In this document: positions 131 through 9,273 of the stretch, piece after piece
How positions within the stretch are numbered: the first letter of the stretch is position 1
Layout: each line of letters starts with the position of its first letter
Assembly: GCA_020632335.1 (NCBI GenBank)
Contig: JACKFV010000001.1
Location: 420,001 to 452,000 of the forward strand
Length of the DNA: 32,000 nt
Reading direction: 5' to 3'
Source: Candidatus Saccharimonadota bacterium
Lineage (GTDB): Bacteria; Patescibacteriota; Gracilibacteria; UBA4473
Position numbers and translations under genes: made by a program
Notes under the pieces: model-generated
The model's input: the letters and a program-made list of their open reading frames with translations, nothing else
Databases searched by the model: none
What the model was told of the DNA's origin: nothing

Positions 131-1906
131 ATGCGCCAGAAGCACGTAGTGAGTGGCCTGATTCTCCTCCTGCTGGGGGGGGTCATGCTGCTACAGTCGC
201 AGATACCCCAGTGGCGAGCGCTGGCGGAGGCCAGTGTGGAGAGTGCCCTCAACGCCGGTACCAGCGCAGAGGCGTGGCAGCTGGCAGCCTACCAGGCCGA
301 GAGTCTGCCCAGCGTCTACCCCTTTACGCTGCTCTCGCGCACCATCACTGACCTCTCAGCCGTGGCCGCGGCGTACGAGCGCCTCCCCAGTGTGGCCAAT
401 TTTTCGCTGACGTCACAGCCCTTTCTTTATAGCGATATCGAGCCCTATTACCAGTTCAGCCGCACCCTGCGCACCACTATAGCGTCGCTGCAGTCGCGAC
501 TGGGGCGCCTGCCACGAGGGATATTTACCCCAGAGCAGCAGCAGGAGCTGCGTCTGCTGGAGGGGCAGATGAAGATACTGAGCGGCTGGCTGAAGGACGC
601 GGAGGAGATCTACGCAACGCTGAAGGAGCACCGTGACCGCGTGCTGATTCTCTTTATGAATGAGAACGAGGCCCGTGCTGGAGGCGGTTTTGCGGGGTCG
701 CTGGCTTACCTGGATTTCGCTCCGGGGGGGGTGTACCTCAGCTTCCACGACATCTACAGTGAGGACCGGCTCCTCCCCGAGAGCGCGAAACTCCCCGCGC
801 TAGACTACTTCACACCGCTGGACCCGCTCATCAGCCTGAAGGATGTCCCCGCGCTGAGCGCTGACTTCCCTACCCTGGCCGAGCAGTACCAGGACTTCTA
901 TAAGGCCATGCCCAGGAGCTTTGTGCCCAGTACCGTCCTGGCGGTAGATACCCAGGCCATACGCACGCTGCTGGGGGCGCTGCCGCGGGCCATCACGCTG
1001 GAGCCCTGGGAGATCACCGTGACGCCCGAGAATGCCGATATGGTACTGCAGTTCTTGGTGGAATCTAAAATTGCCGGCCGCTATGACGTCAAATCCCCCA
1101 TCATGCAGCTGGGGGTGCAGCTCATGGATCCAACGCTCTGGCGGGGTTTTGCCCTGGGGGAGGAGAACGCGGCGGCGCTGCTGGAGCTGCTGGAGCAGGG
1201 GCACGTGCGGCTCTGGAGTGAGCGGCGAGTACTGCAGTCCCTTGCCGAGCGGGCGGGCATGACTGGCCAGGTGACGCGCAGCCGGAATATCGACGATTTT
1301 CTCCAGCTCAGCATCACGAATATTGGCGCGAATAAGTCGGATAGATTTGTAGATACCGCCGTGCACCACCGCACCAAGGTCCTCCCCACAGGCCTGGGCA
1401 AGGTCTACCTGACGCTGCGGCGTACCCATACGCTGGCTCCGGGGGAGATAGACCACCTGCTCGGCACCACGAGACTCAGCCCGAATGTCGCCAGCACCCT
1501 CACCGACGCGGTGCGCTATGTCTTGGGAGACAGCCAAAACCGCGCCATTATGCATCTGTCACTCCCTGCGGGGGCCGTCATAGACAACTACAGTAACCCC
1601 AGTGGCAGCTATAACGTGCTGGAGGATAGCCCCTTCAGCAACGCGCAGACGGTGGAATTCCCCATGCATGTGAGCCCCGGCGAGTCACTGGAGGTAGTGC
1701 TGGAGTACACGGTGCCGCTGAAGAGAGGATCGAGCGCCTGGCGACCCTATAGCTTTGAGCTGCTGCCCACCCCCGCCCGAGAACGCAGCGAGTTCATCAA
1801 GACCATCACCACGACCGACGACGGGCAGCTCACCGCCGAGACCGAGAACATGGGCCGCCCCCTGCCCTTGCAAGAGCAGATCTACCGCGCGGTGGTGGAG
1901 TTTTAG
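131..1906 (+). CDS. DUF4012 domain membrane-anchored protein
   Basis: 591-aa ORF with an N-terminal TM segment (VVSGLILLLLGGVMLL). It carries the DUF4012-type motif VLILFMNENEARAGGGFAGSLAYLDF. The family assignment is from memory of the motif. Confidence 0.75.
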   Translation: MRQKHVVSGLILLLLGGVMLLQSQIPQWRALAEASVESALNAGTSAEAWQLAAYQAESLPSVYPFTLLSRTITDLSAVAAAYERLPSVANFSLTSQPFLYSDIEPYYQFSRTLRTTIASLQSRLGRLPRGIFTPEQQQELRLLEGQMKILSGWLKDAEEIYATLKEHRDRVLILFMNENEARAGGGFAGSLAYLDFAPGGVYLSFHDIYSEDRLLPESAKLPALDYFTPLDPLISLKDVPALSADFPTLAEQYQDFYKAMPRSFVPSTVLAVDTQAIRTLLGALPRAITLEPWEITVTPENADMVLQFLVESKIAGRYDVKSPIMQLGVQLMDPTLWRGFALGEENAAALLELLEQGHVRLWSERRVLQSLAERAGMTGQVTRSRNIDDFLQLSITNIGANKSDRFVDTAVHHRTKVLPTGLGKVYLTLRRTHTLAPGEIDHLLGTTRLSPNVASTLTDAVRYVLGDSQNRAIMHLSLPAGAVIDNYSNPSGSYNVLEDSPFSNAQTVEFPMHVSPGESLEVVLEYTVPLKRGSSAWRPYSFELLPTPARERSEFIKTITTTDDGQLTAETENMGRPLPLQEQIYRAVVEF

Positions 1907-1916
1907 CCCTGCCGGA

Positions 1917-1944
1917 TTGACACGCGTGGTCCTTACGGTAGCAT
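1917..1944 (+). promoter_or_regulatory. Putative sigma70-type promoter of the subunit D gene
   Basis: TTGACA (1917-1922), 16-nt spacer, TAGCAT (1939-1944). The ATG lies 19 nt downstream, so this is a leadered transcript. Confidence 0.35.
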
Positions 1945-1963: not shown

Positions 1964-2620
1964 ATGGCAGTACAACAGGTCACGGCGACGCGCATGACGC
2001 TCCTGGAGCTCAAGAACAAGGTCACCACCGCCAACCGCGGGCATAAGCTGCTGAAGGACAAGCGCGATGGACTCATGCAGGAGTTCCTCACCATAGTGCA
2101 GCGGGCCAAGCAGCTGCGCAAGCAAGTGGAGCAGTCGCTGCGAGATGCCAACCTGGCCTTCCTGGAGGCGCAGATAGCCACCCCCAGACCCTTCATCGAG
2201 AATGCCCTGGCTGAGCCCGTGAAGGATATTCGCATCGGTGTACGGACCAAAACCATCATGGCCGTGAAGATCCCCGAGTTCACCGTAGAGGTGACCGACC
2301 GCGCCGTGCAGTACTCCGCGCTGCAAACCCGTGCCAGCCTGGACATCACCCTGGAGAAGTTCAGCAGTGTCATCGCCCTGCTGGTGGAGGTAGCTGAGAC
2401 CGAGAAGGCCGCCGAGAATATGGCCCTGGAGATAGAAAAAACCCGCCGACGGGTCAACGCGCTGGAGCACAAGATGATCCCCGACCTGCAAGACACGCTG
2501 AAGTACGTGAAGATGCGCCTGGGTGAGACCGAGCGCTCGGCGATTGTGCAGGTGATGGCGATCAAGAACCTGATAGAAGCTAACGAGAACCGTAATACTC
2601 CCCCGCATGCCTCTGCGTAA
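1964..2620 (+). CDS. ntpD: V/A-type ATP synthase subunit D (central stalk)
   Basis: Full-length match to the subunit D pattern. N-terminal motif: TRMTLLELKNKVTTANRGHKLLKDKRDGLMQEF. C-terminal motif: EIEKTRRRVNALEHKMIPDL...KYVKMRLGETER. The size (218 aa) is typical. Confidence 0.9.
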   Translation: MAVQQVTATRMTLLELKNKVTTANRGHKLLKDKRDGLMQEFLTIVQRAKQLRKQVEQSLRDANLAFLEAQIATPRPFIENALAEPVKDIRIGVRTKTIMAVKIPEFTVEVTDRAVQYSALQTRASLDITLEKFSSVIALLVEVAETEKAAENMALEIEKTRRRVNALEHKMIPDLQDTLKYVKMRLGETERSAIVQVMAIKNLIEANENRNTPPHASA

Positions 2621-3677
2621 TTCCCTCCTCTCCAGCCTGCTCACCAGCGCCCTGGTGCTGCTCACCAGTACCGCGCTGGCTTCGCCCCTGCCTGCGGACT
2701 ACCCGCTCTATCGCCAGATCCTCGAGCAGGAGCCCGGCATGCAGCAGCTGGAGCTTCCGCGGGAGGTGCTGCAAGACGTCGACCGTCGGGGCAAGAACCT
2801 GGCGATATTCGACGAGGAGAACACGCTGGTGCCCTTTACCCTGGCTACTAGCGGGGTGGAGCGCCTGGACGGCACGACGCTCACGGTGGTAGAGCAGACC
2901 TTTGGCGATGGGCAGGACCCGCAGTACCTGGTGGATGGAGATATTAGCACCATCGCTGGCTTTGCTAACCGCAGCGATGAGAGCCTGGTGCCCTCGGTTA
3001 CCCTTGCCTTCCCGAGGCCCGTGCCCCTGGCGGCGGTGAGTTTTGACCCGTCGTATAAGGCTGCTATCCCCCGGCTGGTGCTGCGCGCAGGCCTCACGCG
3101 AGAGAGCATGAAGACGCTCTACAGCGGGGAGTACCACCCCGAGATCCTCCAAGAAACCGACCCTATTAGCTACCTGGAGGTGCAGTTCCCCGCCGCGAGT
3201 GACCTGGTGCTCAAGGATATCTTCGTCTACGCAGCGCCACGCTGGGGGCTGCGCTTCCCGGCTGAGGACGGCAAACGCTATACCCTGGCCTATGGCGGCA
3301 GCCGTGACTACGCGGCGTATCGTCATCGGGAGACGTTCTCAGACACCTTTACCCCGAATGCACGGCTGAGTAACCCCATCACCACCGCAGACTATACGGG
3401 AGAAATCCCCCAGTACCTGCCCGATACCGACCGTGACGGCGTGGCCAACGCGGAGGACAACTGCCCGCTGATGGCCAATGAGGCGCAGGACGACAGTGAC
3501 CGAGACGGCATCGGGGACGTGTGTGACAGCCAAGACAACCGTCAGTCGGTGGGGGAGACACTCCGAGAGGCTGGCTCTGCACTGACCAATAGTAACGCTA
3601 CCGCGCTCTACCTGGTGCTGGCGGCGCTGCTCATCGGCATTATTGTCTTTGCGCTGCACCACCGCAAACGCCGCTAA
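2607..3677 (+). CDS. Secreted, C-terminally anchored surface protein with thrombospondin type-3 (Ca-binding) repeats
   Basis: Signal peptide MPLRNSLLSSLLTSALVLLTSTALA. TSP3-like repeats DTDRDGVANAEDNCPLMANEAQDDSDRDGIGDVCD at 3423-3527. C-terminal TM segment plus basic tail (ALYLVLAALLIGIIVFALHHRKRR). The start overlaps the ntpD stop by 14 nt. Confidence 0.8.
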   Translation: MPLRNSLLSSLLTSALVLLTSTALASPLPADYPLYRQILEQEPGMQQLELPREVLQDVDRRGKNLAIFDEENTLVPFTLATSGVERLDGTTLTVVEQTFGDGQDPQYLVDGDISTIAGFANRSDESLVPSVTLAFPRPVPLAAVSFDPSYKAAIPRLVLRAGLTRESMKTLYSGEYHPEILQETDPISYLEVQFPAASDLVLKDIFVYAAPRWGLRFPAEDGKRYTLAYGGSRDYAAYRHRETFSDTFTPNARLSNPITTADYTGEIPQYLPDTDRDGVANAEDNCPLMANEAQDDSDRDGIGDVCDSQDNRQSVGETLREAGSALTNSNATALYLVLAALLIGIIVFALHHRKRR

Positions 3678-3716: not shown

Positions 3717-4313
3717 ATGCAACGCGGCAAATTCTGTATTATTTCTGGCTTTACGGGGGCGGGGAAGTCCACGCTTATCCAGCATCTGCGGCTGCATCGC
3801 CCGGATCTCCTCTTCCTCAGAAGCATCACCACCCGCGCGCCACGGCCAGAGGAGCTCACCCACCCGGAGCTCTGCAGCTATGACTTTGTCACCGAGGAGC
3901 AATTTAGAGAGCTCATCACTACCGGGCAGCTGCTAGAGCACGCGCTGGTGCACAACGCCCACTACTACGGCACGCGTAAGCAACCCATCTTCGACGCTAT
4001 TGCTGCAGGGCAGCTCATCTATAAGGAGATGGACGTAGCGGGCTATGAGATCGTGGAGCAGCTGCTGCCAGCGAAGGATTTCTTTGGTATTACCCTGCAG
4101 TATGACCCCACCGAGGAAGAGATCCGCCAGCGCCTGACTAACGGGGACCGCGCGATGGAGGAGGCAGACGTGCAGCGCCGTATGGCCAGCATCGCCAAGG
4201 AGCAGGAGGTAACCCGGCGCTACCAGTACCACGTGGAGAGCGTGTGGCACCAGATGCCGGCCGTCATCACCGCGGTAGAGGGGATCATCGCCCAGGAGAT
4301 GCATGAGCAGTAA
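3717..4313 (+). CDS. gmk: Guanylate kinase
   Basis: P-loop GFTGAGKST, then SITTRAPRPEE...YDFVTEEQFRELITTGQLLEHALVHNAHYYGT. Confidence 0.95.
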   Translation: MQRGKFCIISGFTGAGKSTLIQHLRLHRPDLLFLRSITTRAPRPEELTHPELCSYDFVTEEQFRELITTGQLLEHALVHNAHYYGTRKQPIFDAIAAGQLIYKEMDVAGYEIVEQLLPAKDFFGITLQYDPTEEEIRQRLTNGDRAMEEADVQRRMASIAKEQEVTRRYQYHVESVWHQMPAVITAVEGIIAQEMHEQ

Positions 4314-4701
4314 CTCCCTCGGCGACACCGGTGAGGCGCTGGCCCGCGAGTACCTGGAGGAGCAAGGGTTGCAGTGCTGCACCCAGCAGTACCACAGCCA
4401 GGGCGGCGAGATAGACCTCATCTGCTATGACGCGACGTCAGACACCTATGTGCTGGTGGAGGTGAAATCGCGGCGCTCGCGGCGGTACGGGCAGCTGCAA
4501 GAGAGCATCACTCGGCAGAAGATAGCGCGCATGCTACACGCGGCTGAGCGCTATTTCCTCACTGAGCTGGAACGCCAAGAAGTGCCCTACTTCCGCATAG
4601 ACATCGTTTTCATCGACTATAGCGGGGACACCCCCATCATCGACTGGTTGCCGAATATCGCCCTGGAGGACGAGTCTACTGGCAGCTCTCGGCCAGGGTG
4701 A
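4303..4701 (+). CDS. yraN: YraN family (UPF0102) endonuclease-like protein
   Basis: GDTGEALAREYLEEQG...GGEIDLICYD...YVLVEVKSRRS. Overlaps gmk by 11 nt and ends in TGA. Confidence 0.9.
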   Translation: MSSNSLGDTGEALAREYLEEQGLQCCTQQYHSQGGEIDLICYDATSDTYVLVEVKSRRSRRYGQLQESITRQKIARMLHAAERYFLTELERQEVPYFRIDIVFIDYSGDTPIIDWLPNIALEDESTGSSRPG

Positions 4702-7146: not shown

Positions 7147-9273
7147 ATGGACCTCCGCCCCGCAGACGAACCGAAAAAAATCACGCCAGAAGCCATCGCT
7201 GAGGCGCTCTCCAGCTATTGTGTGGACTTCACGGCTAAGGCCAAGGCGGGCAAAATAGACCCCATCATCGGCCGCGATGAAGAAATCCGCCGGACGATAC
7301 AGATCCTCAGCCGTCGGACGAAGAATAACCCCGTGCTCATCGGGGAGGCGGGGGTAGGCAAAACCGCCATTGTGGAGGGGCTAGCGTATGAGATTTTCAA
7401 GAAAAAAGTGCCCGAGAGCATCCAGGATAAACGCGTGCTGGCGCTGGACCTCGCCGCGCTCATCGCGGGGGCGAAGTACCGGGGGGAGTTTGAGGAGCGG
7501 CTGAAACTGGTGCTGAAGGGGGTGCAAGACGCTGCCGGGGGCATCATTCTCTTCATCGACGAGCTGCATACCATCATCGGTGCGGGGGCCAGTAGCGGCG
7601 CGATGGACGCCAGCAATCTCCTTAAACCCGCGCTCAGCAGGGGCGAGCTGCACTGCATTGGCGCCACCACCACGGCGGAGTACCGCCAGTACATCGAGAA
7701 AGACCCGGCACTGGAGCGACGGTTCCAGCAGGTCTACATCGACGAGCCTACGCGTGAGGAAGCCCTGGCGATCCTCCGGGGTATCCGCGAACGGTATGAG
7801 ATCCACCATGGGGTGCGCATCACCGACGACGCGCTCATCGCCGCGATTGACCTCTCCATCCGCTACCTGCCCGACCGCCGCCTGCCCGACAAGGCTATCG
7901 ACCTTATGGACGAGAGCATGAGCAAGCTGAAGCTGGAGATAGAGAGCGAGCCTGAGGAAATCGCGGCCAAGAAGCGTGACCTCATGACCCTAGAACTAGA
8001 GGCCGCGGCGATCAAATCTGACCCGAGTAAAGCCGTGGAACTGGCCACTATCCGTGAGAAAATCACGAGTACGCAGGCCAGCCTCGCCGCGCTGCAGGAG
8101 CGATGGAAGGGTGAGCAAGAGCTCCTGGAGGCCATCAAGCACACCAAGGCGAAGATCGACAAGCTCATGCTGGACGCCGATAAAGCCCGCCGAGACGCCG
8201 ACTATGCCCGCCTGGCGGAGATCCTCCACGGGCAGCTGCCGGCGCTGGAGCAACAGCTGAAGGAGCAACAAGACAAGACCAAGGGCGCGCTGGTGCGTGA
8301 CCAGGTAACGGCTGAGGACATCGCTAAGATAGTGGCTAAGTGGACGGGTATCCCTGCGACGAAGCTCACGCAGACCGAGAGCCAGAAGCTCTCACACCTG
8401 GAGGACGAGCTACACCGCCGTGTCATCGGGCAGCACCGGGCCGTCACCGCGGTGTCTAACGCTATCCGTCGCAACCGCACCGGGCTGACTAAGGGCGATA
8501 AACCCATCGGGAGTTTCCTCTTCCTCGGCCCTACGGGAGTGGGGAAAACCGAGCTAGCCAAGGCCCTGGCAGCCGAGCTCTTTGACACCGAGAAGGCCAT
8601 GATACGCTTTGACATGAGCGAGTTTATGGAGGCTCACTCGGTGAGCCGGCTCATTGGCGCGCCACCGGGATATATCGGCTTTGAGGCCGGGGGCGAGCTG
8701 ACCGAGGCGCTGCGTACTCACCCCTACTGCGTGCTGCTTTTCGACGAGGTGGAGAAGGCCCACCGGGACGTCTTTAATATCTTCCTGCAGCTGCTGGATG
8801 AGGGGCACATCACCGACAGTAAGGGCCGCCAGGTGAGTGGCAAGCAGTGCATTGTGATCTTCACCTCGAACCTCGCGCATGATCTCTTCCTCGGCGAGGT
8901 CATGCCCGACGACCTCACCGTACGCAAAGAGCTACAGCGCTTCTTCCGCCCGGAGTTCCTCAACCGTTTAGACTCTATCATTGGCTTCCACCCGCTGAGC
9001 AAAGACCACATCGCGCAGATCCTCGGCATACAGCTGAGCAGCCTGCGCAAACGCCTGCAAGAGAAGGGCATCGCTATCACCTTCACTGACGCCGCCCAGG
9101 CCTGGCTGACCGAGCGAGGATTCGACCCCGAGTTTGGTGCCCGGCCGCTCAAACGCGTCATAGAGCGCGAGCTGCTTGACCCCCTGGCCATGCAGATGAT
9201 AGAAGGCACGGTGAGCCAGAACATCACGGTAGACGTCGCTGATGGGCAGATACTCTTCCGCGGTGGGGGGTAA
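7147..9273 (+). CDS. clpB: ClpB-type AAA+ disaggregase without the Clp_N domain
   Basis: Two Walker A motifs ([16 protein letters not shown]) with a long coiled-coil M-domain between the nucleotide-binding domains. The protein starts just before [14 protein letters not shown], so the roughly 150-aa N-domain is absent. Confidence 0.95.

Follow-up and report, generated by a model that had tools for sequence, protein, structure and literature searches.

The product of the gene located at positions 1964..2620 (+) of the window is very probably a true subunit D, serving the only V/A-type rotary ATPase of the cell, and sequence comparisons indicate that the gene has been relocated away from its partner genes. 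The window is the whole stretch of 32,000 nucleotides that was analysed (C1:420001-452000). It belongs to a 703-kb genome of the Peribacteria/Gracilibacteria-type CPR, assembled in 2 contigs and 89% complete. Subunit D is a member of a known family and the ATPase gene set is fragmented yet complete: the genome displayed one set of V/A-ATPase genes, spread over four loci (G-I-K-E-C-F, A, B and D).

The 218-aa product (ntpD/atpD) had been proposed in the original prediction to be a full-length subunit D, and profile searches bore this out. It matched PF01813 (ATP-synt_D) with E=2.6e-52 and 178 bits (cut-off 25.7) over profile positions 2-196 of 196, and scored 154 bits against the curated V-type D subfamily TIGR00309, for which the cut-off is 72. 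Its nearest solved relative was NtpD from Enterococcus hirae (3aon, E=7.5e-43), followed by the Thermus protein (3a5c, E=3.9e-23) and by yeast and mammalian V1 D subunits (1e-12 to 1e-18). A whole-genome search of the 2-contig, 89%-complete assembly returned this single D match, and D was present in all 43 genomes of the family to which the window's genome belongs.

The partner genes were found elsewhere. As had been claimed, the 32 kb contain no other ATPase subunit, since genome scans for A/B, I, K, E, C and F placed none of them in the window; the full partner set occurred instead at three loci other than that of D. A 100-aa G-like coiled-coil ORF followed by I, K, E, C and F lies about 50 kb downstream of D (C1:470.2-475.0 kb). 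The gene for subunit A stands on its own, its neighbours being greA and a thioredoxin-reductase-like gene (C1:256158-258005; NF003220, 845 bits), and subunit B is likewise encoded alone (C2:4884-6332; NF003235, 701 bits). D is therefore not located directly after B, which is on the other contig, while A is 165 kb away from D. Subunits I, K, C and F were assigned by Pfam profiles. Subunit E was matched weakly, with neither profile reaching its cut-off (PF01991, E=1.9e-4; NF002629, E=1e-6), while the G-like ORF matched no family at all. Neither an F-type gamma subunit nor a second c-type subunit besides K was found in the whole-genome scan. D being single-copy in the assembly, the other ATPase loci carry no D of their own. 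A second ATPase set on the ~11% of the genome missing from the assembly is improbable.

A clear difference was observed between this arrangement and that of related families. The canonical contiguous operon, ordered I-K-E-C-F-A-B-D, was recorded in six sister families and in nine further public loci. In the sister families D is the last gene, placed right after B and followed by opposite-strand genes, without X (the gene that follows D in the window, see below) or clpP. In the window's family (43 genomes, 25 genera), A and B were both located in 17 genomes, and in every one of these A, B and D were apart. The operon was broken up step by step within this family, as intermediate arrangements persist in some genera, with A next to the I-K-E-C-F cluster or B near D: C-A adjacency was retained in G014, G003, G004 and G007, and B occurred within 1-5 kb of D (in D-X-clpP) in G012, G013, G015 and G040. 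The stages of the break-up of a rotary-ATPase operon can thus be followed, from one operon to I-K-E-C-F-A plus D-X-clpP-B, and from there to four loci. The window's genome is both the smallest of the family (0.70 Mb, against 0.8-2.0 Mb) and the most fragmented, with its four loci. It further distinguished itself by a GC content of 59% (proteins of most relatives look AT-rich, i.e. rich in K, I and F) and by a local gene order almost unshared with relatives from the family.

Of the two readings first offered, displacement of D from its operon was upheld, one gene set being found at four loci where sister families keep I-K-E-C-F-A-B-D, and the displacement went beyond what was proposed. The rest of the ntp set, lacking D, had been expected elsewhere in the genome if this were a simple relocation; this is essentially what was observed, except that A and B were also separate from each other and from the remaining genes. 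An isolation of D due to faulty assembly or binning of this metagenome-assembled genome has to be considered for an assembly of 2 contigs that is 89% complete. Yet the separation of A, B and D and the D-X pair recurred in independent assemblies, including the closed single-contig genomes G012, G014, G015 and G040, and GC content was uniform across the D region, which leaves such an artefact a practically negligible chance. No account of such a gene order was found in the literature on V-type ATPases in Peribacteria or Gracilibacteria. The dispersal of the genes has a practical side for annotation, as metabolic reconstructions of MAGs of class Gracilibacteria that search for operons only may mistake a complete ATPase for an incomplete one.

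Several D genes outside this pattern were recorded. A lone D that is 47% identical to that of the window occurred outside the window's family, in a Candidatus Gracilibacteria MAG (JBGSOV010000001.1; L046:8001-8630). The genes on either side of it lie on the opposite strand, and neither A nor B occurs within 8 kb. This may represent an independent operon break-up. In one genome from a sister family, a second and divergent A-B-D set (G020:C1:380895-384916, L040; D with E=1.7e-33) occurred besides the normal operon. Likewise, one member of the window's family displayed a second, weak D-like ORF (G034:C10:30072-30608, E=6e-15).

Comparison with known systems places this dispersal in context. The V-type Na+-ATPase operon of E. 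hirae is organized as ntpFIKECGABDHJ. The window's genome resembles it by a D that is homologous over its full length and by a subunit repertoire comprising I, K, E, C, F/G, A, B and D. It differs by the lack of a single operon, so that A, B and D would be separately transcribed, and by the presence of D in one unit with the surface-lectin gene X. Several promoters must then be balanced to reach the A3B3DF stoichiometry, although the genome encodes very few regulators. Operons from sister Peregrinibacteria/Peribacteria (e.g. L044 and L047-L051) encode orthologous subunits (46-50% identity for D, 54-62% for A and 55-63% for B), but D ends the operon there, whereas in the window's family it heads the D-X(-clpP) unit. 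In the streamlined genome of Ignicoccus hospitalis, disruption of the cluster for the A-type ATP synthase was previously described (PMC2614490). Both cases share a small, rearranged genome in which the genes of a complete rotary ATPase are scattered. The present one differs in that it concerns a CPR lineage, that fragmentation is family-wide with visible intermediates, and that D is accompanied by a conserved gene unrelated to the ATPase.

The second reading first offered was that D, as a stalk-like protein, had been recruited by a different machine and no longer served the V-ATPase. Structural similarity between D, F1-gamma and the flagellar export protein FliJ is known, and D is indeed encoded away from A and B, beside envelope and surface genes. 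Our results did not point in this direction. Since D is single-copy, the V/A-ATPase set would be an enzyme without its essential shaft if D were not counted. Moreover, strong PF00006 matches in the genome were limited to V-type A and B, both far below FliI/SctN cut-offs, and no FliI- or SctN-type ATPase was found; with V-type A and B as the only strong alpha/beta-family ATPases, there is no alternative hexamer for D. The constraints on the D sequence were also the same as those on operon-encoded D proteins, the window's D having kept 61 of the 72 columns that are invariant in the sister families, and the gene was retained throughout the family. Recruitment of D to another machine is therefore highly improbable. 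An isolated D gene in a genome of the CPR is no sign of a new FliJ-like machine, and a false lead is thereby removed. Neofunctionalisation of D was considered as a separate candidate and rejected: identity between D proteins of the window's family and those of sister families was 52.6%, against 57.7% among sister families, and no column was fixed differently between the two groups, which displayed six near-fixed differences only.

The neighbours of the relocated D gene were as originally described. Upstream lies a DUF4012 membrane protein gene (131..1906, +; PF13196, E=4.9e-12), which is context outside the conserved unit. Downstream, gene X (2607..3677, +; 356 aa), whose product is secreted and carries TSP3 repeats, overlaps D by 14 nt (2607-2620). 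It is followed by gmk, coding for guanylate kinase (3717..4313, +), and by yraN/UPF0102 (4303..4701, +), both identified with Pfam. A promoter-like site (TTGACA-16 nt-TAGCAT, 1917..1944, +), recovered by a consensus scan with 10 matches out of 12, ends 19 nt 5' of the D start codon and is a candidate private promoter of the D-X unit. The scan returned 1 site in 5.4 kb where 1.7 were expected by chance, a count that is not above chance. The DUF4012-D-TSP3 neighbourhood was conserved for one half only: D and the TSP3 gene remain together across the family, but DUF4012 was not kept, no homologue being present near D in any relative examined. Likewise, neither gmk nor yraN occurred close to D in six other genera, and clpP holds their place in relatives.

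Two further features of this region were recorded. A 708-aa two-domain Clp/Hsp100-type AAA+ ATPase (AAA_2, AAA_lid_9 and ClpB_D2-small) is encoded at 7147-9273 (+), 4.5 kb downstream of D, at a locus from which clpP itself has gone. On the other side, about 4 kb separate the window from the end of a single ORF of 6,699 aa (C1:396173-416272), which codes for a giant protein of surface type.

The X protein displayed a signal peptide, a beta-sandwich (residues ~30-260), TSP3 repeats (~270-308), a C-terminal TM helix and an HHRKRR tail. The repeats matched TSP_3 (PF02412) with 30 bits against a cut-off of 25. Pfam F5_F8_type_C was not matched, and TSP_3 alone was reported at E<=0.01. Fifteen orthologues shared one layout, consisting of a signal peptide, a domain of ~240 aa, Ca-binding TSP3 repeats, a TM helix and a basic tail. 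Residues D273, D275, D277, D284, N285 and C286 of the acidic TSP3 motif were among the invariant columns of these 15 proteins, and the TM helix and the tail varied in sequence. An AlphaFold2 model built from the alignment of the 15 orthologues reached a mean pLDDT of 78, with values of 85-94 in the N-terminal beta-sandwich. Its best Foldseek matches in the PDB were CBM32/discoidin galactose-binding modules (4lqr, 2v72 and 4a41), with E=1e-5 to 1e-7 and target-length normalised TM-scores of 0.66-0.74 (4lqr: E=1.6e-7 and 0.66). As modelled, X is a membrane-anchored type-I surface protein of lectin/adhesin-like character, and it could plausibly act as an adhesin of an episymbiont.

The association between D and X looked exceptional at first. 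X orthologues were sought across genomes with the 15-sequence alignment, and X was located directly 3' of D, on the same strand, in 41 of the 43 genomes of the window's family, with D-X gaps ranging from -29 to +61 nt. The two exceptions were G007, where the contig ends just past D, and G044, which lacks X. Among about 50 genes of the window's genome that lie no more than 9 kb from D, A or B, only the D-X pair was syntenic across all six other genera, while two genes near A recurred near A in one or two genera. Besides D-X and the ATPase cluster, one out of ten tight same-strand pairs was kept between the window's genome and its relatives.

The ancestral unit is nevertheless larger than this pair. 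D-X-clpP is the usual arrangement and constitutes the sole block shared around D in nine genera, with clpP following X at L123:9649-10260 in G015 and at L142:2053-2673 in G013, for example. In G044, from which X was deleted, the order is D-clpP (clpP at L137:641-1303). In the window's genome, clpP has moved ~60 kb away from D-X and is found at C1:361008-361625. The idea of D-X as a uniquely conserved pair was consequently rejected, the conserved block being D-X-clpP and the window's genome being a scrambled outlier, and our estimate of a functional link between D and X was lowered for the same reason.

In such a functional link, X would be an accessory or partner protein of the V-ATPase. Ac45/ATP6AP1, ATP6AP2 and yeast Voa1 are type-I accessory membrane proteins of eukaryotic V-ATPases. 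X resembles them by its signal peptide, its large outside domain, its single C-terminal TM helix and its short cytoplasmic tail, a membrane topology shared with Ac45 and Voa1, as well as by the linkage of its gene to that of a rotor subunit. In one version, the C-terminal helix of X might, like these proteins, associate with the K ring or with subunit I; in another, X would be a lectin by which the pump is positioned where the host is contacted. Same-strand adjacency in 41 of 43 genomes is in line with either version, as is the fact that D-X is among the very few pairs that the scrambled genome of the window has in common with six other genera. Given their 14-nt overlap, the two genes may be translationally coupled, in which case both proteins would possibly be made in a 1:1 ratio. 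Such a partnership, if true, would explain why this coupling was maintained while nearly all gene order decayed.

Several observations run counter to this proposal. X is not strictly associated with the V-ATPase, as X-family proteins were present in four genomes without D (G062, G139, G121 and G140) and as genus G044 retains D and has lost X. The conserved block includes the unrelated gene clpP, so that adjacency in this family needs no shared function. The sequence of the TM helix and tail is not conserved; X resembles the eukaryotic accessory proteins neither in sequence nor in fold, being a CBM32 lectin combined with TSP3 repeats, with no Ac45, ATP6AP2 or Voa1 among the Foldseek matches, and X paralogues occur behind genes for other membrane proteins (DUF2339 and a Kef-type exchanger). 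A functional coupling of D and X is hence unlikely, and we give an equally small chance to X as a lineage-specific V-ATPase partner, be it a prokaryotic analogue of Ac45/Voa1 or a tie between the pump and the host-attachment site of an episymbiont. The D-X link is best read, from gene order, as a shared and lineage-specific transcription unit grouping unrelated housekeeping and surface genes. Shared transcription alone does not positively explain the family-wide persistence of D-X.

A relocated D would still operate within a conventional rotary enzyme. It would be expressed from its own promoter with a short leader, as a bicistronic D-X message. D and F would then join the A3B3 head in trans, D forming the coiled-coil central shaft, and subunit C would couple this shaft to the K ring, so that ATP hydrolysis drives ring rotation. 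E/G and I would form the stator, by analogy with established V/A-ATPases. In a fermentative CPR cell, the enzyme would probably be an ATP-driven ion pump. The ring subunit K, a double hairpin encoded ~20 kb beyond the end of the window (C1:472594-473046; L014:7594-8046), matched E. hirae NtpK (2bl2) with E=1.4e-18. Its residues L55/S58/Q59/Q104/E133 align to L61/T64/Q65/Q110/E139 of NtpK, which were listed as Na+ ligands (PMC2359735), the five positions being kept or conservatively replaced. Na+ is a plausible pumped ion, in an ATP-consuming role, because K keeps these ligand positions.

X paralogues or relatives were also encountered at other loci, directly downstream of other membrane-protein genes (L141:5460-8698 in G015, L140:5576-8774 in G043 and L138:4565-7716 in G062). 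One of them follows a DUF2339 gene with a 4-nt overlap, and another a Kef-type Na+/H+ exchanger that contains a TrkA_N domain. The order is a recurring one, in which the gene for a CBM32-TSP3 anchor protein comes after that for a membrane protein.
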